Translations under genes and position numbers: made by a program
Shown: positions 1 through 7,492 of the stretch, piece after piece
Numbering within the stretch: position 1 is the stretch's first letter
Layout: each line of letters begins with the position of its first letter
Notes under the pieces: generated by a model
Databases searched by the model: none
What the model was told of the DNA's origin: nothing
Seen by the model: the letters and a program-made list of their open reading frames with translations, nothing else
Origin: a virus
Taxonomy: Duplodnaviria > Heunggongvirae > Uroviricota > Caudoviricetes
Virus record (IMG/VR): IMGVR_UViG_2695420847_000016
Coordinates: 1 to 8,083 of that record
Strand: one strand, 5' to 3'
DNA: 8,083 nt

Positions 1-500
1 CGCGTCGTTCTCTGGGATTACCGGCGGAAAAAATCCGCTCCGTATACCGTGAAAGCGACATCATACCGGGAGAACAGACCGCCACCAGCATACTGAAGCA
101 GCGCACAAAAAATATTGCGCTACCGCCTCACACCCACCAGCAACAGAACCCACCACAGGAAAAGACGGTGGTCAGCATTGCCGTTGATCCGGAGTCTCCG
201 GAATCCTTCATGAAACGACCTAAACGTCGCCTCTGGGTAAATGAGAAATACACACGCTGGGTAAAGACACAGCCGTGTGCGTGTTGTGGTAAGCCAGCGG
301 ACGATCCTCATCATCTGATTGGTCATGGTCAGGGTGGAATGGGAACAAAATCCCACGATATTTTCACGCTACCGCTGTGTCGGGAGCATCACAACGAGCT
401 TCATGCGGATCCGCTGGCGTTCGAAGAAAAGCATGGTTCCCAGGTTGATTTAATTTTTCGTTTTCTTGATCACGCTTTTGCAACCGGCGTGCTCGGGTAA
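1..500 (+). CDS. Phage zinc-finger protein of the YdfU/YbcO (DUF968/DUF1364-like) type; 5' end lies outside the window
   Basis: The frame is open from base 3 to TAA at 498-500; the ORF track shows only the internal GTG at 168. The C-terminal part has a Cys/His pattern (CACCGKP...HH...GTK...CREHH). The gene sits directly upstream of rusA, as in lambdoid nin regions. Family assignment is from motif and context, not a search. Confidence 0.6.
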   Translation, partial: RRSLGLPAEKIRSVYRESDIIPGEQTATSILKQRTKNIALPPHTHQQQNPPQEKTVVSIAVDPESPESFMKRPKRRLWVNEKYTRWVKTQPCACCGKPADDPHHLIGHGQGGMGTKSHDIFTLPLCREHHNELHADPLAFEEKHGSQVDLIFRFLDHAFATGVLG

Positions 501-512
501 AAGAGGTTACTG

Positions 513-884
513 ATGCGTATAGAGTTTGTTTTGCCTTACCCGCCGACGGTGAACACCTACTGGCGACGTCGTGGCAGCACATATTTTGTATCAAAAGCCG
601 GTGAGCGTTATCGCCGGGCTGTGGCGCTTATTGTTCGCCAGCAGCGGCTGAAATTAAGCCTGTCCGGACGGCTGGCAATAAAAATTATTGCAGAACCACC
701 GGATAAGCGCCGCCGTGACCTGGACAACATTCTGAAAGCACCGCTGGATGCGCTGACGCATGCGGAAGTGCTCATTGATGACGAGCAGTTTGATGAAATC
801 AATATTGTGCGCGGTCAGCCTGTGCCAGGTGGACGGCTGGGCGTGAAGATTTACGAAATCAGAGGTGGTAACGATGGCGCGTGA
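513..884 (+). CDS. rusA: RusA Holliday-junction resolvase (crossover junction endodeoxyribonuclease)
   Basis: 123-aa ORF with AAGAGG 5 nt upstream of ATG 513. The protein has the RusA-type acidic core ([20 protein letters not shown]) and length matching E. coli RusA. Confidence 0.88.
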
Positions 885-1245
885 TATCCAGATGGTTCTT
901 GAGCGATGGGGGGCATGGGCAGCAAATAATCATGAAGATGTAACATGGCCCTCGATAGCTGCTGGTTTTAAAGGATTAATCCCGACTAAAGTGAAATCAC
1001 GTCCTCAGTGTTCTGATGATGACGCCATGATAATTTGTGGTTGTATGGCACGATTAAACAAGAATAATCAGTATTTGCACGATTTGTTGGTGGATTATTA
1101 CGTAGGTGGAATGACATTTATGGCTCTTGCACGTAAGCATAGATGTTCTGATGGGCTTATTGGTAAAAGGCTTTATAAAGCGGAAGGTATTATTGAAGGA
1201 ATGCTTATGGCTCTGAATGTCCGGTTAGATATGGATATGCGGTAG
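874..1245 (+). CDS. Late-gene antiterminator Q, short (about 125 aa) Q family as in DLP12-type prophages
   Basis: ATG 874 is preceded by AGAGGTGG (861-868) and overlaps the rusA stop (ATGGCGCGTGA). The sequence [25 protein letters not shown]...CGCMARL matches my memory of QuuD-like Q proteins. The track start GTG 865 is probably too far upstream. Confidence 0.8.
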
Positions 1246-1336
1246 GGATATATAGTGATGAGGGTTATGTTTTCTGTGTTTATAATTAACATGTTTATTT
1301 TTTGATGGTCATGTATTGTGGAAGGTAGATAAAATG

Positions 1337-1365
1337 TTGCCTGGTGAATTGAAAATATTGATAAT
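1337..1365 (+). promoter_or_regulatory. Candidate sigma70 promoter (TTGCCT-N17-GATAAT) in the AT-rich spacer between Q and the CPBP gene
   Basis: Hexamer match with 17-bp spacing, about 30 nt upstream of the CPBP ribosome-binding site. It could be the PR'-equivalent late promoter or a cargo promoter. Sequence match only. Confidence 0.25.
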
Positions 1366-1396
1366 CAATCTTCATCATTAAATAAAAGGAGTGCTT

Positions 1397-2215
1397 ATGT
1401 GGATTGTGTTAGTACTGTCACTGTCAACTCTCAGTTGGCATAAGGTAGTGGCTTTTTCATTGTTGACGGTGTCTGTTGTCCTGGCTGTGCTTAATGATAT
1501 TATTGATTGGTCGGTGTTATTTTTTGTTGCTACAATCGTTTTTTTTATTATTTTGAAGTTCAACTGGAAATATAACGCCTGGGCTAAATCTATATATGAA
1601 GTTGGCATAGTTTTATCAGCCATAGCATTATCTTTCCATCTATGGCCAGGGTTTCACAATCCTGTAGTGCTAAATTCTGTTACTGTTGGCCCTCAAAGTA
1701 CTCCCTATACAATGTATTTTAATTTTGATAAAGCGCTGGTGCCATTTTTGTTAGTCCTGTGTACATCTTCTTTGTTTAAAAAAGAAGTAAAATCAGAAGT
1801 GTCTTTGTGGAAGTGGGGGGCTCTGTCGCTCTCTGTTCCTCTTATCCTGTTTTTGGCTGTTTTTTTTGGTGGATTAAAGCCAGAGATTCATTTTCCTGAG
1901 TGGTTGCCAGAGTTTATATTGGCTAATTTGTTTTTTGTGTCTCTGGCAGAGGAATCATTATTTAGAGGGTATATTCAATCACGGCTATCAGAAGTAACGT
2001 CTCCATTGGTTGCATTAATTGTGGCGGCTTTGTTGTTTGGTTTTTATCACTATTCAGGTGGTGCTTTACTTGTATTATTTGCCACGTTATCTGGTGTTGT
2101 GTATGGATTGTCATGGATGTGGAGTGGGCGTTTGTGGGTTGCCACCCTTTTCCATTTTGGTTTGAATCTGTGTCACTTGTTATTCTTTACCTATCCATTT
2201 TTAAAACATAATTGA
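1397..2215 (+). CDS. CPBP-family (CAAX protease / Abi domain) intramembrane metalloprotease
   Basis: AAGGAG (1386-1391) lies 5 nt before ATG 1397; the track start GTG 1391 is 2 codons upstream. The protein is a multi-pass hydrophobic protein with all three CPBP motifs: EExxxR (LAEESLFRGY), FxxxH (FGFYHY) and HxxxN (HFGLNL). The gene is markedly AT-rich compared with the rusA/Q backbone. Confidence 0.8.
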   Translation: MWIVLVLSLSTLSWHKVVAFSLLTVSVVLAVLNDIIDWSVLFFVATIVFFIILKFNWKYNAWAKSIYEVGIVLSAIALSFHLWPGFHNPVVLNSVTVGPQSTPYTMYFNFDKALVPFLLVLCTSSLFKKEVKSEVSLWKWGALSLSVPLILFLAVFFGGLKPEIHFPEWLPEFILANLFFVSLAEESLFRGYIQSRLSEVTSPLVALIVAALLFGFYHYSGGALLVLFATLSGVVYGLSWMWSGRLWVATLFHFGLNLCHLLFFTYPFLKHN

Positions 2216-2295
2216 TTTTTTCTATGGTTTTAAATTTATAAGACTGAAAAATAGCAGGACGTGACATTTGCATGAAAAATATGCACGGCAAAGCA

Positions 2296-2309
2296 TTTAC
2301 GTACGTAAA
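2296..2309. promoter_or_regulatory. Perfect 14-bp palindrome TTTACGTACGTAAA, candidate operator
   Basis: Exact reverse-complement symmetry, in the intergenic region between the CPBP gene and the small winged-helix ORF. Function is inferred only. Confidence 0.2.
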
Positions 2310-2356
2310 AAATCAGGTATGCTGTTAAGAGTGGTTATTTCGCCGCATAGCTTGAC

Positions 2357-2378
2357 CCCGCCTCTGAGCGGGTTTTTT
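2357..2378 (+). terminator. Intrinsic terminator downstream of the CPBP gene
   Basis: CCCGC-CTCTGA-GCGGG hairpin followed by TTTTTT. Confidence 0.5.
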
Positions 2379-2501
2379 GTGCCCGCAAAGTAGCGCAGTG
2401 CGTTAAATGTGCTGGTAGTTATTAATACAGGTCTTTCAGCTTGCTGGCTTTTTCGGCAAGAGTTATTGGTGTGTCACGTTAACCGGAAAGGGTAAAAAGA
2501 C

Positions 2502-2699
2502 ATGCTGAAACAGCAGGATATGACAGAAACCGCCAGAGTTGTGTTTGATGAATTAAGCGTCACCGAACCGGCGACAGTCGGGGAGATTGCGCAGAATACT
2601 TACCTTTCACGCGAACGCTGCCAGTTAATACTGACCCAGCTTGTTATGGCGGGTCTGGCAGACTATCAGTGCGGTTGTTACAGACGCCTTCAGTCCTGA
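2502..2699 (+). CDS. Small winged-helix DNA-binding protein, PapI/FaeA-like (65 aa)
   Basis: ATG 2502 has a GGAAAGGG purine tract upstream. The segment TVGEIAQNTYLSRERCQLILTQLVMAGLA resembles the PapI/FaeA recognition helix region. Only the last ~49 nt are repeated in the second module (4573-4621), so the intact gene is unique to module 1. Confidence 0.5.
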   Translation: MLKQQDMTETARVVFDELSVTEPATVGEIAQNTYLSRERCQLILTQLVMAGLADYQCGCYRRLQS

Positions 2700-2770
2700 A
2701 GGCTTTTTTATTTGTGGTAAATGGGCGGCTGGTGGGTGTTAGCGGCACCTGTCAGTCCTTTGCTTATGTG

Positions 2771-2801
2771 TTGATGATAATTTACCTTTTGGGGCTATAA
2801 T
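2771..2801 (+). promoter_or_regulatory. Candidate promoter for the AraC-family gene (TTGATG ... TATAAT, 19-bp spacer)
   Basis: Perfect -10 hexamer TATAAT at 2796-2801 and a TTGATG -35-like hexamer at 2771-2776. Spacing is suboptimal. The same motif is conserved in copy 2 at 4690-4720. Confidence 0.25.
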
Positions 2802-2836
2802 TGAACTAACCAATTGCTAATGAAAGTAAAATTATA

Positions 2837-3550
2837 ATGGTTGTTGTCTGTTCAGTTATCATGGTTTGCTCCCCAATTAATATTTTTCTTGAAAAGGATA
2901 CGTTGTCACTTAAGCCCGGCTCAGTCGTTCTGGCCACCAAATGCATCAGGGCGCTTTTCCTTATGCATTATGGCAAAGTTAAAATTTTCGATATAAACCA
3001 TTCCATAGTAAGTCAATATCTGGAAATTCAGCATAAGCTGACAAGAACTCATCTGACTGACGTTCCGCTTTATCTGTCACTGGAACCCAACAACCCTGCG
3101 TTGGCTGAGGCTTTAATTACCAGCCAGAGATTTTCCGGAGATACCACGGATATGTTTCTTATGATGGCATGCCTGTCGCTGTTTGAATCAGATGAACGGA
3201 TATTATTATTTTTAAGTGGATGTTTATCCAGTATAAGTACCAAAGTCAGGGCGATAATTCAGACAGATATATCAGCAAGCTGGACGCTTGGTGCGATTGC
3301 GTTACGCCTGCATATGAGTGAGAGTTTGTTAAAGATAAAACTGAAAAATGAAGGGCACATGTTCAGTCGCTTGTTGCTGGAAGAGCGGATGCGTGTTGCT
3401 GTGAATATGTTATGTTCCCGGCATGGATATGGACAGGCTGTAGCAGAAAAATGCGGTTATTCAAGCTGGTCCTACTTTATTTCTGTATTTCACCGCTATT
3501 ATGGCTTCCCGCCAGACAGATATGTATCCAGGCAAGGGCTTGATTATTGA
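2837..3550 (+). CDS. AraC/XylS-family transcriptional regulator (prophage-encoded, paralog 1)
   Basis: 237-aa ORF with a C-terminal double HTH typical of AraC family (WTLGAIALRLHMSESLL ... YGQAVAEKCGYSSWSYFISVFHRYYGFPPDRY). AT-rich. The start could instead be ATG 2861. Confidence 0.8.
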   Translation: MVVVCSVIMVCSPINIFLEKDTLSLKPGSVVLATKCIRALFLMHYGKVKIFDINHSIVSQYLEIQHKLTRTHLTDVPLYLSLEPNNPALAEALITSQRFSGDTTDMFLMMACLSLFESDERILLFLSGCLSSISTKVRAIIQTDISASWTLGAIALRLHMSESLLKIKLKNEGHMFSRLLLEERMRVAVNMLCSRHGYGQAVAEKCGYSSWSYFISVFHRYYGFPPDRYVSRQGLDY

Positions 3551-3578
3551 TTTTCATCTGATTATTATTTTTTGACCC

Positions 3579-3654
3579 GGCCCTTTAGCTCAGTGGTGAG
3601 AGCGAGCGACTCATAATCGCCAGGTCGCTGGTTCAAATCCAGCAAGGGCCACCA
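3579..3654 (+). tRNA. ileZ: tRNA-Ile2 (anticodon CAU, lysidine type), 76 nt with encoded CCA
   Basis: Cloverleaf built by hand: acceptor GGCCCTT/AAGGGCC, D-stem GCTC/GAGC, anticodon loop CTCATAA, T-loop TTCAAAT. Close to E. coli ileX rather than elongator tRNA-Met. The symbol is by analogy with the Stx-phage tRNA cluster. Confidence 0.8.
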
Positions 3655-3661
3655 TCACATA

Positions 3662-3738
3662 CCGCCATTAGCTCATCAGGAAAGAGCGCCAGCTTTCGAA
3701 GCTGGTTGCGCGGAGTTCGGGTCCCCGAAGGCGGTCCA
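3662..3738 (+). tRNA. argN: tRNA-Arg (anticodon UCG), copy with stem and T-loop irregularities
   Basis: Anticodon loop TTTCGAA between the CCAGC/GCTGG stem. It carries an A-A mismatch in the acceptor stem, an A-C mismatch in the T-stem, and T-loop TTCGGGT (G at the usually conserved A58). It may be impaired. The symbol is by analogy only. Confidence 0.6.
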
Positions 3739-3751
3739 TTATCTGTATCCT

Positions 3752-3828
3752 GCGTTGTTAGCTCAGCCGGACAGAGCAATTGCCTTCTAAGCAATCGGTC
3801 ACTGGTTCGAATCCAGTACAACGCGCCA
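3752..3828 (+). tRNA. argO: tRNA-Arg (anticodon UCU), canonical copy
   Basis: Acceptor GCGTTGT/ACAACGC, anticodon loop CTTCTAA, T-arm ACTGG-TTCGAAT-CCAGT, encoded CCA. Resembles E. coli argU-type tRNA. Confidence 0.85.
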
Positions 3829-3842
3829 CACTTATTTTCCCT

Positions 3843-3868
3843 GGCTCGCTTTTGCGGGCCTTTTTTTT
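3843..3868 (+). terminator. Intrinsic terminator after tRNA cluster 1
   Basis: GGCTCGC-TTTT-GCGGGCC hairpin (one G-U pair) followed by a run of 8 T. Confidence 0.6.
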
Positions 3869-3933
3869 AAATATCTCACAATTCAGGCGGTTGACTGTTG
3901 TCTGGTTTGCGGGGAGTTTGTTAAAAGAAACTG

Positions 3934-4041
3934 GCATGGTGAATCCCCCTGTGCGGAGGGGCGATCAGCAACCAGGTATATGGGATAATCGCGGATTCAG
4001 GTGCTGATACTGAATTCACCGGGAGGCACCCGGCACCATGC
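3934..4041. repeat. 108-bp dyad-symmetric element, copy 1 (100% identical to 6548-6655)
   Basis: Base-by-base comparison shows the two copies are identical. Ends are inverted repeats GCATGGTG...CACCATGC, with internal inverted repeats GGTGAAT/ATTCACC and CCCCT/AGGGG. Flanking sequences are only loosely similar. Confidence 0.8.
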
Positions 4042-4101
4042 TTTGCCACAAAAGTGTTGTTTCTGTTTTTCTCAAACTATCATCGTTATCCCTTTATTTC
4101 C

Positions 4102-4128
4102 GGCTGCGCATGGCGTGGCCTTTTTTTT
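4102..4128 (+). terminator. Intrinsic terminator upstream of the nanS-p fragment
   Basis: GGCTGCGC-ATG-GCGTGGCC hairpin with two wobble pairs, followed by 8 T. A related hairpin recurs at 6800-6825. Confidence 0.45.
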
Positions 4129-4214
4129 ACGACCAGCCACTGGCAGATGGCCATCCTGTAATTTGATTCCGGTTCCGGCTTTTTAACTCTGTTCCTGTAC
4201 ACGGGAGAAATTCG

Positions 4215-4739
4215 ATGTCGATTAAACATTATGATGTTGTCAGGGCGGCGTCGCCGTCAGACCTTGCGGAAAAGCTGACACATAAACTGAAAGAGGGCTG
4301 GCAGCCGTTTGGTAGTCCGGTGGCCATAACCCCTTATACCCTGATGCAGGCGATTGCAGCAGAAGGTGATGTGGTGGTCAGTGGTGCAACTGAGCCGGAG
4401 TGGTACTACGTCATCGTACTGGCCGGGCAGTCCAATGCCATGGCTTACGGTGAAGGGCTTCCGCTGCCGGATTCATACGATGCTCCGGATCCGCGTATTA
4501 AACAGCTGGCGCGCCGCAGTACAGTGACGCCGGGTGGGGCTGCCTGCAGATATAACGATATTATTCCGGCACGGGTCTGGCAGACTATCAGTGCGGTTGT
4601 TACAGACGCCTTCAGTCCTGAAGGCTTTTTATTTGTGGTGAATGGGCGGCTGGTGGGGGGGCGACACCTGTCAGTCCTTTGCTTATGTGTTGATGATAAT
4701 TTACCTTTTGGGGCTATAATTGAGCTAACCAATTGCTAA
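4215..4739 (+). pseudogene. nanS: 5' fragment (about 119 codons) of a nanS-p-type sialate O-acetylesterase gene fused out of frame to the edge of module copy 2
   Basis: The N-terminal sequence is near-identical to the ORFs at 6922 and 7548 up to ...RYNDIIPA (through nt 4570). From 4573 the DNA is the repeat also found at 2651 onward, so the ORF tail (RVWQTISAVV...) is read-through of sequence that is noncoding or in another frame in copy 1. Confidence 0.6.
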
Positions 4740-4755
4740 TGAAAGTAAAATTATA

Positions 4756-5469
4756 ATGGCTGTTGTCTGTTCAGTTATCATGGTTTGCTCCCCAATTAAT
4801 ATTTTTCTTGAAAAGGATACGTTGTCACTTAAGCCAGGCTCAGTTGTTCTGGCCACCAAATGCATCAGGGAGCTTTTCCTTATGCATTATGGCAAAGTTA
4901 AAATTGTCGATATAAGCGAATCCGTCGTAAGTCAATATCTGGAAAGTCAGCATAAGCTGACGAGGACTCGTCTGACTGACATTCCGCTTTACCTGTTGCT
5001 GGAACCCAACAATCCTGCGTTGGCTGCGGCTTTAATTACCAGCCAGGGATTTTCCGGAGAGGCCACGGATATGTTTCTTATGATGGCCTGCCTGTCTCTG
5101 TTTGAAACAGATGAACGGATGTCATTGTTTTTAAGTGGATGTTTATCCAGCATAAGTGCCAAAGTCAGGGCGATAATTCAGACAGATATATCAGCAAGCT
5201 GGACGCTTGGTGCGATTGCTCTACAGTTGCATATGAGTGAGAGTTTGTTAAAGACAAAACTGAAAAATGAAGGGGGCATGTTCAGTCGCTTGTTGCTGGA
5301 AGAGCGGATGCGTGTTGCTGTAAATATGTTATGTTCCCGGCATGGATATGGACAGGCTATAGCAGAAAAATGCGGTTATTCAAGCAGGTCCTACTTTATT
5401 TCTGTATTTCACCGCTATTATGGCTTCCCGCCAGACAGATATGTATCCAGGCAAGGGCTTGATTATTGA
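4756..5469 (+). CDS. AraC/XylS-family transcriptional regulator (paralog 2)
   Basis: 237 aa, same length as paralog 1, with 23 amino-acid differences by manual alignment. 17 of these fall in the N-terminal 135 residues. Confidence 0.8.
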   Translation: MAVVCSVIMVCSPINIFLEKDTLSLKPGSVVLATKCIRELFLMHYGKVKIVDISESVVSQYLESQHKLTRTRLTDIPLYLLLEPNNPALAAALITSQGFSGEATDMFLMMACLSLFETDERMSLFLSGCLSSISAKVRAIIQTDISASWTLGAIALQLHMSESLLKTKLKNEGGMFSRLLLEERMRVAVNMLCSRHGYGQAIAEKCGYSSRSYFISVFHRYYGFPPDRYVSRQGLDY

Positions 5470-5497: not shown

Positions 5498-5573
5498 GGC
5501 CCTTTAGCTCAGTGGTGAGAGCGAGCGACTCATAATCGCCAGGTCGCTGGTTCAAATCCAGCAAGGGCCACCA
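5498..5573 (+). tRNA. ileZ: tRNA-Ile2 (anticodon CAU), second copy
   Basis: Identical in sequence to 3579-3654. Confidence 0.8.
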
Positions 5574-5582
5574 TATTACATA

Positions 5583-5659
5583 CCGCTATTAGCTCATCGG
5601 GACAGAGCGCCAGCCTTCGAAGCTGGCTGCGCGGGGTTCAAGTCCCCGATGGCGGTCCA
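5583..5659 (+). tRNA. argN: tRNA-Arg (anticodon UCG), canonical copy
   Basis: Acceptor CCGCTAT/ATGGCGG (one G-U pair), anticodon loop CTTCGAA, T-arm CGGGG-TTCAAGT-CCCCG fully paired, encoded CCA. Confidence 0.75.
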
Positions 5660-5672
5660 TTATCAGCATCAT

Positions 5673-5749
5673 GCGTTGTTAGCTCAGTCGGACAGAGCAA
5701 TTGCCTTCTAAGCAATCGGTCAGTGGTTAGACTCCACTACAACGCGCCA
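5673..5749 (+). tRNA. argO: tRNA-Arg (anticodon UCU), copy with atypical T-loop
   Basis: Same acceptor and anticodon arm as 3752-3828, but the T-arm is AGTGG-TTAGACT-CCACT. The stem change is compensatory; the loop has A in place of the conserved C56. Confidence 0.65.
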
Positions 5750-6350: not shown

Positions 6351-6514
6351 CGGTAAAACTGCGCCTGGCTGTGGCTGCACTCCTGCTGTTTCTGGTGGTG
6401 ATGGTGGATCTCACCAGCAGAATCATGTCGGTGCTGGCGGATGGGGTGCTGGTCTGCGGCATTGTGGTATTGCTGTGGCCGGTGATAAAAAGAAACAGCC
6501 TGCATAATGCTTGA
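6347..6514 (+). CDS. Hypothetical small hydrophobic protein (about 55 aa, two predicted membrane-spanning segments), translationally coupled to the TerB-like gene
   Basis: Not in the ORF track. GTG 6347 overlaps the TerB stop (GTGA) with GGAGA 7 nt upstream; an alternative start is ATG 6401. The frame runs to TGA 6512-6514 and encodes ...LRLAVAALLLFLVVMVDLTSRIMSVLADGVLVCGIVVLLWPVIKRNSLHNA. Confidence 0.35.
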   Translation: MTVKLRLAVAALLLFLVVMVDLTSRIMSVLADGVLVCGIVVLLWPVIKRNSLHNA

Positions 6515-6547
6515 TTTTTTTGTTTGCTGTTTATTAAAAACACTTCT

Positions 6548-6655
6548 GCATGGTGAATCCCCCTGTGCGGAGGGGCGATCAGCAACCAGGTATATGGGAT
6601 AATCGCGGATTCAGGTGCTGATACTGAATTCACCGGGAGGCACCCGGCACCATGC
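6548..6655. repeat. 108-bp dyad-symmetric element, copy 2 (100% identical to 3934-4041)
   Basis: See copy 1. It lies 267 bp upstream of the nanS-p start at 6922. Confidence 0.8.
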
Positions 6656-6680
6656 AAGAAAAAGAATGTGCATGCAAACA

Positions 6681-6706
6681 TGCCCCTCTCCGGAGGGGCA
6701 TTTTTT
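6681..6706 (+). terminator. Intrinsic terminator
   Basis: TGCCCCTC-TCCG-GAGGGGCA hairpin (8 bp) followed by TTTTTT. Confidence 0.6.
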
Positions 6707-6712
6707 ATGGGT

Positions 6713-6737
6713 AAAAAATGCCCGAATGGGTTCGGGC
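6713..6737 (-). terminator. Possible minus-strand intrinsic terminator facing the one at 6681-6706
   Basis: GCCCGAA-TGGG-TTCGGGC hairpin with AAAAAAT on its 5' side on the + strand, which is a T-run on the minus strand. No minus-strand gene is evident to its right. Confidence 0.3.
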
Positions 6738-6799
6738 AATAGCATGAGATACTGATATTGTTGTGTTGTTATCGTGTGGATTTTAACCAGGGTTTATCA

Positions 6800-6825
6800 G
6801 GCTGCGCAACTGCGTGGCCTTTTTT
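6800..6825 (+). terminator. Intrinsic terminator in the nanS-p leader
   Basis: GGCTGCGC-AACT-GCGTGGCC hairpin followed by TTTTTT; a diverged homolog of the hairpin at 4102-4128. Confidence 0.5.
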
Positions 6826-6866
6826 CATTTCTTGGGCTGTAGTCCCCGTGTGTCATTCAGGCTTCC

Positions 6867-7492
6867 GGACTACAGCCCACTCCATATCTGATTTAATACA
6901 CTATCCCGGCCGGGAGGAATAATGACATTTAAACATTATGATGTTGTCAGGGCGGCGTCGCCGTCAGACCTTGCGGAAAAGCTGACACACAAACTGAAAG
7001 AGGGCTGGCAGCCGTTTGGTAGTCCGGTGGCCATAACCCCTTATACCCTGATGCAGGCGATTACAGCAGAAGGTGATGTGGTGGTCAGTGGTGCAACTGA
7101 GCCGGATTGGTACTACGTCATCGTACTGGCCGGGCAGTCCAATGCCATGGCTTACGGTGAAGGGCTTCCGCTGCCGGATTCATACGATGCTCCGGATCCG
7201 CGTATTAAACAGCTGGCGCGCCGCAGTACAGTGACGCCGGGTGGGGCTGCCTGCAGATATAACGATATTATTCCGGCCGACCACTGCCTGCATGATGTGC
7301 AGGATATGAGTACGCTGAATCATCCGAAGGCAGACCTGAGCAAAGGGCAGTACGGCTGTGTCGGCCAGGGCTTACATATTGCCAAAAAACTGCTTCCGTA
7401 TATCCCGAATAACGCGGGGATCCTGCTGGTACCATGCTGTCGTGGTGGTTCGGCATTCACCCAGGGCGCGGAGGGGACATTCAGTGCGGACA
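6867..7492. repeat. Tandem duplication unit 1 (626 bp: 55 bp of leader plus the first ~190 codons of nanS-p)
   Basis: The sequence from 6867 recurs from 7493 with a constant offset of 626 bp to the window end. At least four single-base differences were seen, for example at 7205/7831, 7250/7876, 7268/7894 and 7396/8022. Confidence 0.85.

Follow-up and report, generated by a model that had tools for sequence, protein, structure and literature searches.

Two AraC-like genes of an 8-kb prophage contig very probably encode PsrA-type and PsrB-type regulators and are separable from a conserved small phage gene beside them

The window analyzed here is the whole of draft contig CYAO01000067.1 of assembly GCA_001283385.1, 8,083 bp of prophage DNA that carries two related AraC-type regulator genes, the first of them preceded by an open reading frame (ORF) of 65 amino acids. 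The two AraC-type genes are very probably a PsrA-type and a PsrB-type prophage-encoded secretion regulator (Psr), that is, moron genes of lambdoid prophages. The 65-amino-acid ORF is a separate, conserved backbone phage gene and no dedicated partner of Psr. A first-pass annotation, made from the sequence, had placed the small ORF directly 5′ of a gene of the AraC/XylS family and had suggested that the AraC-type genes might belong to the PatE/Psr class of regulators. The described arrangement was found at 2502-2699 and 2837-3550, with Pfam cut-offs passed by the AraC-type protein, and the suggestion proved right for Psr and could be sharpened to two named types (236 and 234 of 237 residues identical, respectively). 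The two genes are:

2837 to 3550, plus strand: PsrA-type AraC-like regulator of 237 amino acids (copy 1), with Pfam domains HTH_18 and HTH_AraC, very probably so assigned by its identity to ECs1087.
4756 to 5469, plus strand: PsrB-type AraC-like regulator of 237 amino acids (copy 2), with Pfam domains HTH_AraC and HTH_18, very probably so assigned by its identity to EDL933_RS10010.

As the first-pass annotation had proposed, we compared both proteins with characterized prophage AraC-like regulators, and this comparison returned near-identical homologs. Copy 1 differed from ECs1087 of Escherichia coli O157:H7 Sakai, taken as the extended ORF, by a single substitution, T135 in copy 1 versus A135 in both Sakai and EDL933. 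The EDL933 counterpart of copy 1, EDL933_RS06220, is identical to ECs1087 and likewise matches copy 1 at 236 of 237 positions. The group that had described the Psr regulators named psrA as ecs1087 on prophage Sp4 of Sakai in a paper of 2026 (PMC13502914). Copy 2 carries three substitutions relative to EDL933_RS10010 (1,905,274-1,905,987). The gene psrB has been reported as z2104 on O-island (OI) 57, which spans 1,849,324-1,929,825 of EDL933, and its product as 90% identical to PsrA (PMC10877973, PMC8565820). EDL933_RS10010 lies inside this published range and is the sole AraC-like gene within the 50 kb of OI-57 that we examined. Indeed, ECs1087 and EDL933_RS10010 are identical at 215 of 237 residues (90.7%), which agrees with the published value for PsrA and PsrB. 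Judged by sequence, both window proteins thus appear to show the close identity to PsrA and PsrB that marks the Psr family.

Some points weigh against these assignments. The links between genes and names come from two reviews and one 2026 paper, and the PsrB assignment was made by position within the published OI-57 coordinates, not by the sequence of z2104. There is also a conflict over the locus of psrA, which the reviews give as z1789 on OI-50/CP-933N (PMC10877973, PMC8565820) and the later paper as ecs1087 on Sp4 (PMC13502914). We located the psrA-type gene in Sp4 and in the equivalent EDL933 prophage, not at the OI-50/CP-933N stretches examined: by annotation and tblastn, no psr homolog was detected in a 50-kb stretch of Sakai Sp6, nor, in the corrected assembly of EDL933, in the first ~41 kb of CP-933N (everything except about 7 kb at its end). 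Furthermore, the activity of the window copies is deduced from their identity of 98.7-99.6% to published regulators, the N-terminal fold is not established by the AlphaFold2 model of the AraC protein, which was poor (predicted local distance difference test, pLDDT, 60.8), and the promoter and terminator considered below are consensus matches only.

The other member of the suggested class, PatE, was considered as well. ECs0287, the probable PatE on the OI-8 equivalent Sp1 of Sakai, is only 37-38% identical to the window copies, and for this reason we regard the window genes as Psr and not PatE. Orthology to z0321 (OI-8/CP-933H) was accordingly rejected, the more so as ECs0287 occupies another prophage position.

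The genomic context of the genes was found to resemble that of known psr loci. Positions 1-4041 of the window share 99.5% DNA identity with prophage Sp4 of Sakai. Upstream of module 1, by which we mean the intact small ORF and copy 1, the window contains the 3′ end of a DUF968 gene, RusA, the Q antiterminator and a CPBP/CAAX protease gene. Each AraC gene is followed by an ileZ(CAT)-argN-argO tRNA cluster and then by fragments of nanS-p type esterase genes, and TerB and DUF3927 genes are present downstream of copy 2. The tRNA clusters are:

3579 to 3828, plus strand: tRNA cluster of ileZ (CAT anticodon), argN and argO directly 3′ of psr copy 1, called by ARAGORN and annotated as ileZ1/argN1/argO1 in Sakai.
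5498 to 5749, plus strand: second ileZ-argN-argO tRNA cluster.

The order DUF968, RusA, Q, CPBP, small ORF, AraC, ileZ, argN, argO, nanS-p, together with a PerC/Pch gene, is common to Sakai Sp4, the matching EDL933 prophage and E. coli ML35. In OI-57 of EDL933 the part from the small ORF through the AraC gene and the tRNAs to nanS-p is conserved, but the genes of the antiterminator region differ and there is no CPBP gene. In the complete genomes (ML35, Sakai with pchA, EDL933) a PerC-family gene lies 4-7 kb downstream of the module; the contig is too short to show such a gene for the source strain. The association of psr genes with lambdoid prophages and with Pch (PerC-family) regulators was therefore recovered here, the window itself showing DUF968, RusA and Q. 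A protein 100% identical to copy 1 is encoded in E. coli ML35 (6438-7151 of the stretch examined), with a PerC-family gene downstream of it.

In members of the AraC/XylS family, about 100 C-terminal residues form a DNA-binding domain that contains two helix-turn-helix motifs. Matches to HTH_18 (36.6 bits for copy 1 and 39.8 bits for copy 2, Pfam cut-off 33.6) and to HTH_AraC (35.4 and 50.3 bits, cut-off 26.6) cover residues 155-230 of both copies, and by this sequence evidence both proteins belong to the family. The top match in the PDB was the DNA-binding domain of GadX (3MKL, E=4e-19); Rns, CsvR and ToxT came next, and identity to GadX in this domain amounted to 39-41%. Over their full length, both copies align with GadW of E. 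coli K-12 (35% identity, E=1e-39 to 1e-41), with YdeO (31%), with the DLP12 prophage regulator AppY (29%) and with ECs0287 (37%). The N-terminal motif MxVxCSVI is common to the copies, GadW, YdeO, AppY and ECs0287, and for this reason we favor the start codon that gives 237 amino acids over the 195-amino-acid product annotated in Sakai. The NCBIfam profile for YdeO spans residues 1-229 of the window proteins but scored 104-108 bits against an equivalog cut-off of 348, and that for GadX scored 87-90 bits against a cut-off of 500. Since these scores are far below the cut-offs, equivalog membership was rejected for both, and the window proteins are to be regarded as paralogs or xenologs, not orthologs, of YdeO and GadX. 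The structural model gives no more than a hint of an N-terminal domain rich in strands, with helices after it.

The two window copies are identical to each other at 214 of 237 residues (90%). Of the 23 differences 17 fall within the N-terminal 130 residues, the ratio of nonsynonymous to synonymous substitution rates (dN/dS) is 0.43, and both paralogs are intact. The family is nearly restricted to E. coli and Shigella, with members ranging from 99% to about 39% identity. Cluster look-ups for the window proteins returned generic names only and no Psr or CP-933 labels, and in RefSeq the Psr proteins are named merely 'helix-turn-helix domain-containing protein'. The first-pass annotation had described both the small ORF and the AraC gene as AT-rich. 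This applies to the AraC genes, which have a GC content of 42-44%, and not to the small ORF, which has 51%.

The small ORF was assessed by its conservation, its domain matches and a structural model. Its position is:

2502 to 2699, plus strand: conserved phage ORF of 65 amino acids, matching phrog_331 (function unknown) and carrying the NCBI name 'TrmB family transcriptional regulator'.

The match to phrog_331 is strong (E=6e-37), and 295 database relatives were found across E. coli, Shigella, Salmonella, Klebsiella, Citrobacter and Buttiauxella. A dN/dS of 0.06-0.19 against four phage or prophage homologs marks the ORF as a genuine gene that is subject to purifying selection. Its AlphaFold2 model (pLDDT 77.6) contains three core helices and a C-terminal helix, and this predicted three-helix helix-turn-helix core is consistent with a small winged-helix domain, as a generic class only. 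In Pfam, sub-threshold winged-helix matches to TrmB, MarR_2, DprA_WH and HTH_20 had similar scores. Membership of TrmB was rejected at 17.8 bits against a gathering cut-off of 25.6 (E=0.003), and no NCBIfam model matches the protein. A Foldseek comparison of the model with the PDB gave nothing significant (all E ≥0.3), and phmmer gave no PDB match at E≤10. The best superpositions were with small winged helices of various kinds, namely PefI, the IclR-type PcaR and Z-alpha.

The first-pass annotation had called this protein PapI/FaeA-like. Proteins of the PapI/FaeA family are typically accompanied by a fimbrial operon, a PapB-type partner and a Dam/Lrp phase-variation switch. No fimbrial operon or PapB-like partner is present within the window, where, as in the related prophages and phages, the neighbors of the small ORF are phage Q, the CPBP protease, psr or a DNA methylase, tRNAs, and stx or nanS-p. 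PefI (2JT1) does superpose on the model with a template modeling score of 0.65 and a root-mean-square deviation of 1.5 Å over 50 columns, at a Foldseek E-value of 0.5. The protein, however, gave no match to Pfam FaeA (PF04703) at E≤0.1, whereas PefI as a positive control matched at E=1.7e-23, and hhalign of the small-ORF profile against PefI gave a probability of 5.6%. Together with the lack of a PDB sequence match, this led us to reject membership of the PapI/FaeA family, and the label is not upheld beyond a generic winged-helix likeness in Foldseek.

The small ORF and the AraC gene had also been presented as a regulator pair. They are neighbors but can occur apart, and two features between them bear on this:

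2686 to 2713, plus strand: terminator-like hairpin, GCCTTCAG-TCCT-GAAGGC followed by a T-run, which overlaps the stop codon of the small ORF and was found by a terminator scan; in module 2 it lies at 4608-4634.
2771 to 2801, plus strand: sigma-70 promoter-like site, ATGATA-16-TATAAT with 10 of 12 matches, about 35 nt 5′ of the psr start and identical in module 2.

The site at 2771-2801 is the top-scoring promoter-like site within 1150-4250 and is a putative promoter. If the small winged-helix protein and the AraC-like protein formed a functional two-gene unit, for instance a co-regulator or anti-activator with its activator, one could point to 725 complete E. coli genomes and phiSTEC1575-Stx2k, in which the two genes are adjacent and co-oriented, and to the DNA-binding-type folds of both proteins. 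We nevertheless consider such a unit very unlikely. The terminator-like hairpin and a separate promoter-like site stand between the genes. Moreover, the small ORF of phiP27 and of Stx2_EH2201 has no psr behind it but a DNA methylase, then tRNAs and stx2, and at least 22 records of Shiga-toxin (Stx) type phages match the small-ORF part of the query only. The methylase occupies 3949-5007 in phiP27, an Stx2e phage, and 3451-4509 in Stx2_EH2201, an Stx2a phage, of the stretches examined. In phiSTEC1575-Stx2k the small ORF is followed by a psr homolog (89% identical; 3924-4637 of the stretch examined), and there tRNAs and stx2k come next. A small ORF plus AraC module, counted where at least 80% of the 1201-bp query was covered, is present in 725 of 5,426 complete E. 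coli genomes, yet the query region is matched in 2,154 genomes, so that about two-thirds of these lack the full module. In addition, the small ORF next to psrA is frameshifted in Sakai (ECs1086) and in EDL933 (EDL933_RS06215, annotated 'frameshifted'), though psrA of O157 is reported to be functional. Finally, ECs0287, the probable PatE, has no small winged-helix neighbor.

The slot between the small ORF and the tRNAs is a variable cargo position, which holds psr or a DNA methylase and lies just upstream of stx in some Stx phages. The hairpin and promoter-like site between the genes, the methylase in place of psr and the frameshifted ORF beside psrA together lead us to this reading, in which psr looks like a self-contained moron. 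One might still ask whether the small protein regulates whatever follows it in the slot (psr, a DNA methylase, tRNAs, stx) or late transcription in general. It is the first annotated ORF 3′ of Q in Stx2_EH2201, and in the remaining lambdoid prophages and Stx phages that we examined it stands directly 5′ of the cargo slot. We regard such a role as unlikely; if it were true, it would tie the state of the phage to the expression of Psr or of Shiga toxin.

The proposed function of the window copies is taken over from published work. Psr regulators induce GadE and YhiF and repress type III secretion, PsrB and PatE bind the hdeA promoter between −132 and −45, and PsrB binds the gadE promoter (PMC10877973, PMC8565820). 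By their near-identity (98.7-99.6%), the window copies would be expected to follow the mechanism published for PsrA, PsrB and PatE, and their apparent membership of a clade with GadW, YdeO, AppY and PatE fits this mechanism. In the proposed scheme, psr occupies the variable cargo slot that is bounded by the leader of the Q antiterminator and by ileZ-argN-argO, upstream of nanS-p and the lysis genes. Its product is, over its full length, a xenolog of GadW, YdeO and AppY, regulators of the chromosomal GAD island, and is probably built of a strand-rich N-terminal domain and a double helix-turn-helix DNA-binding domain that is nearest to GadX. Expressed in the lysogen, Psr would bind the gadE and hdeA promoters and raise GadE and YhiF, and this rise would in turn increase glutamate-dependent acid resistance and indirectly repress type III secretion encoded by the enterocyte-effacement locus (LEE). 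Expression of psr is most likely autonomous, given the terminator-like hairpin at the end of the small ORF before it and the promoter-like site 35 nt 5′ of its start.

The position of psr also invites a different view of its timing, in which it would mainly be a late gene of the lytic program, transcribed from pR′ under Q antitermination and acting on phage or host promoters during induction. The gene does lie 3′ of Q and of a leader block that is conserved and contains terminator-like hairpins, and it is co-directional with the tRNA, stx or nanS-p and lysis genes; after induction, Q-modified polymerase would transcribe through psr. However, phenotypes of psrA deletion have been reported for uninduced lysogens, and the published regulation is by attachment and the HnrS/Hha pathway. 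Many of the carrier prophages are cryptic or defective, Sp4 of Sakai being broken by insertion sequence (IS) elements, and a promoter-like site stands directly ahead of psr. A mainly lytic role is thus most improbable in our view, and autonomous expression in the lysogen remains the preferred reading.

The contig joins two psr modules in tandem, and the sequences at the joins deserve separate consideration:

4215 to 4571, plus strand: 5′ part of an esterase gene of nanS-p type (DUF1737/SASA) with a Pfam DUF1737 match; the gene breaks off at codon 119, where the tail of the second small ORF is joined on.
4572 to 4621, plus strand: last 50 nt, stop codon included, of the second small ORF, 100% identical to 2650-2699.

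The statement in the first-pass annotation that module 2 keeps only the last ~49 nt of the small ORF is thus accurate to within one nucleotide. The accompanying statement that only module 1 has the ORF intact holds for this contig, and does not extend to PsrB-type modules in general, in which the ORF is intact in EDL933 and RM12581. At the junction 4571/4572 there are just 3 nt of microhomology and one extra base. At the junction 7492/7493 there are ~7 nt, and from there on 626 bp of the nanS-p 5′ region are repeated in tandem (99.3% identity).

The layout of psrA module, truncated nanS-p, truncated small ORF, psrB module and 626-bp repeat could reflect either a chimeric assembly of several prophages or a strain-specific rearrangement. 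A real rearrangement, which would place two psr paralogs in one prophage, is suggested by the very short microhomology at both joins, unlike the long shared k-mer of a simple graph mis-join, and by the fact that the contig is on record for 2 samples. On the other hand, a search of 5,426 complete E. coli genomes for the junction 4571/4572 gave no match, nor did an exact-pattern scan of IMG/VR and JGI metagenome contigs. The junction 7492/7493 is matched only as two separate pieces, 626 bp apart, among the top complete genomes listed. The entire 8-kb contig consists of multi-copy prophage DNA with repeats at its ends, and the chimeric 174-amino-acid product is recorded for this contig alone. We therefore consider a genuine rearrangement possible but doubtful. 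Since the junction 4571/4572 is absent from the collections searched and the small ORF of module 2 is intact in complete genomes, the tandem layout and the truncated small ORF are peculiar to this contig.

Other features of the window concern the surroundings of the modules, among them one further gene:

1397 to 2215, between Q and the conserved leader: CPBP/CAAX-type intramembrane protease gene of 272 amino acids with 38% GC, matching phrog_13291 (unknown function).

This gene looks like another inserted moron, and it is missing at the corresponding position of Stx2_EH2201. The leader block at 2323-2500 contains a strong hairpin with a T-run (2357-2372) and two more hairpins, and the same block begins 38 nt past the Q stop codon in Stx2_EH2201. 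It may be the pR′/tR′ short-transcript region of this type of Q. Two copies of the small RNA STnc100 lie 5′ of the nanS-p genes, at 3905-4077 and 6519-6712 on the plus strand, and one copy of AgvB, a prophage anti-GcvB sponge RNA, lies at 6713-6774 on the minus strand; all were found with Rfam above the gathering score. The CAT tRNAs at 3579-3654 and 5498-5573 are tRNA-Met according to ARAGORN and tRNA-Ile (ileZ) according to RefSeq and the Sakai annotation. The ileZ annotation of such a tRNA stands for a lysidine-modified CAT anticodon. A role in defense was rejected for the small ORF, Psr, the CPBP protease and TerB, none of which gave a match in PADLOC.

The Psr system is already known, and its published picture is unchanged by the present analysis. 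Psr regulators are one prophage route to the rewiring of core stress and virulence circuits of E. coli, with acid resistance going up and type III secretion going down, and their correct naming matters for annotation. The remaining point of some interest is the conserved small ORF of unknown function. Compared with PapI, FaeA and PefI, this ORF is of similar size and has PefI among its best superpositions, but IclR-type and Z-alpha winged helices score equally well. PsrA of Sakai Sp4 (ECs1087) shares with the window 236 of 237 amino acids and the series Q, CPBP protease, small ORF, psr, ileZ-argN-argO and nanS-p, with pchA nearby. It differs in having A135 where the window has T135, a frameshifted small ORF where that of the window is intact, and an annotated product of 195 amino acids. 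PsrB of EDL933 OI-57 (z2104; taken as EDL933_RS10010) resembles copy 2 at 234 of 237 residues and is likewise followed by tRNAs, TerB, DUF3927 and nanS-p, but its module has an intact small ORF and two tRNAs, whereas the window has a 50-nt remnant and three tRNAs. PatE (z0321, OI-8/CP-933H; taken as ECs0287) resembles Psr in being an AraC-like activator carried by a prophage, in acting on the same acid-resistance promoters and in its N-terminal motif. Unlike Psr, it has 247 amino acids and 37-38% identity to the window copies, and it lies outside the Q-to-tRNA slot, at the far end of a degraded prophage beside an IS fragment. The chromosomal regulators GadW, YdeO, GadX and AppY of K-12 are homologous to Psr and overlap with it in published targets (gadE, hdeA); what sets Psr apart from these regulators of the GAD circuit is that it is prophage-borne and multi-copy.

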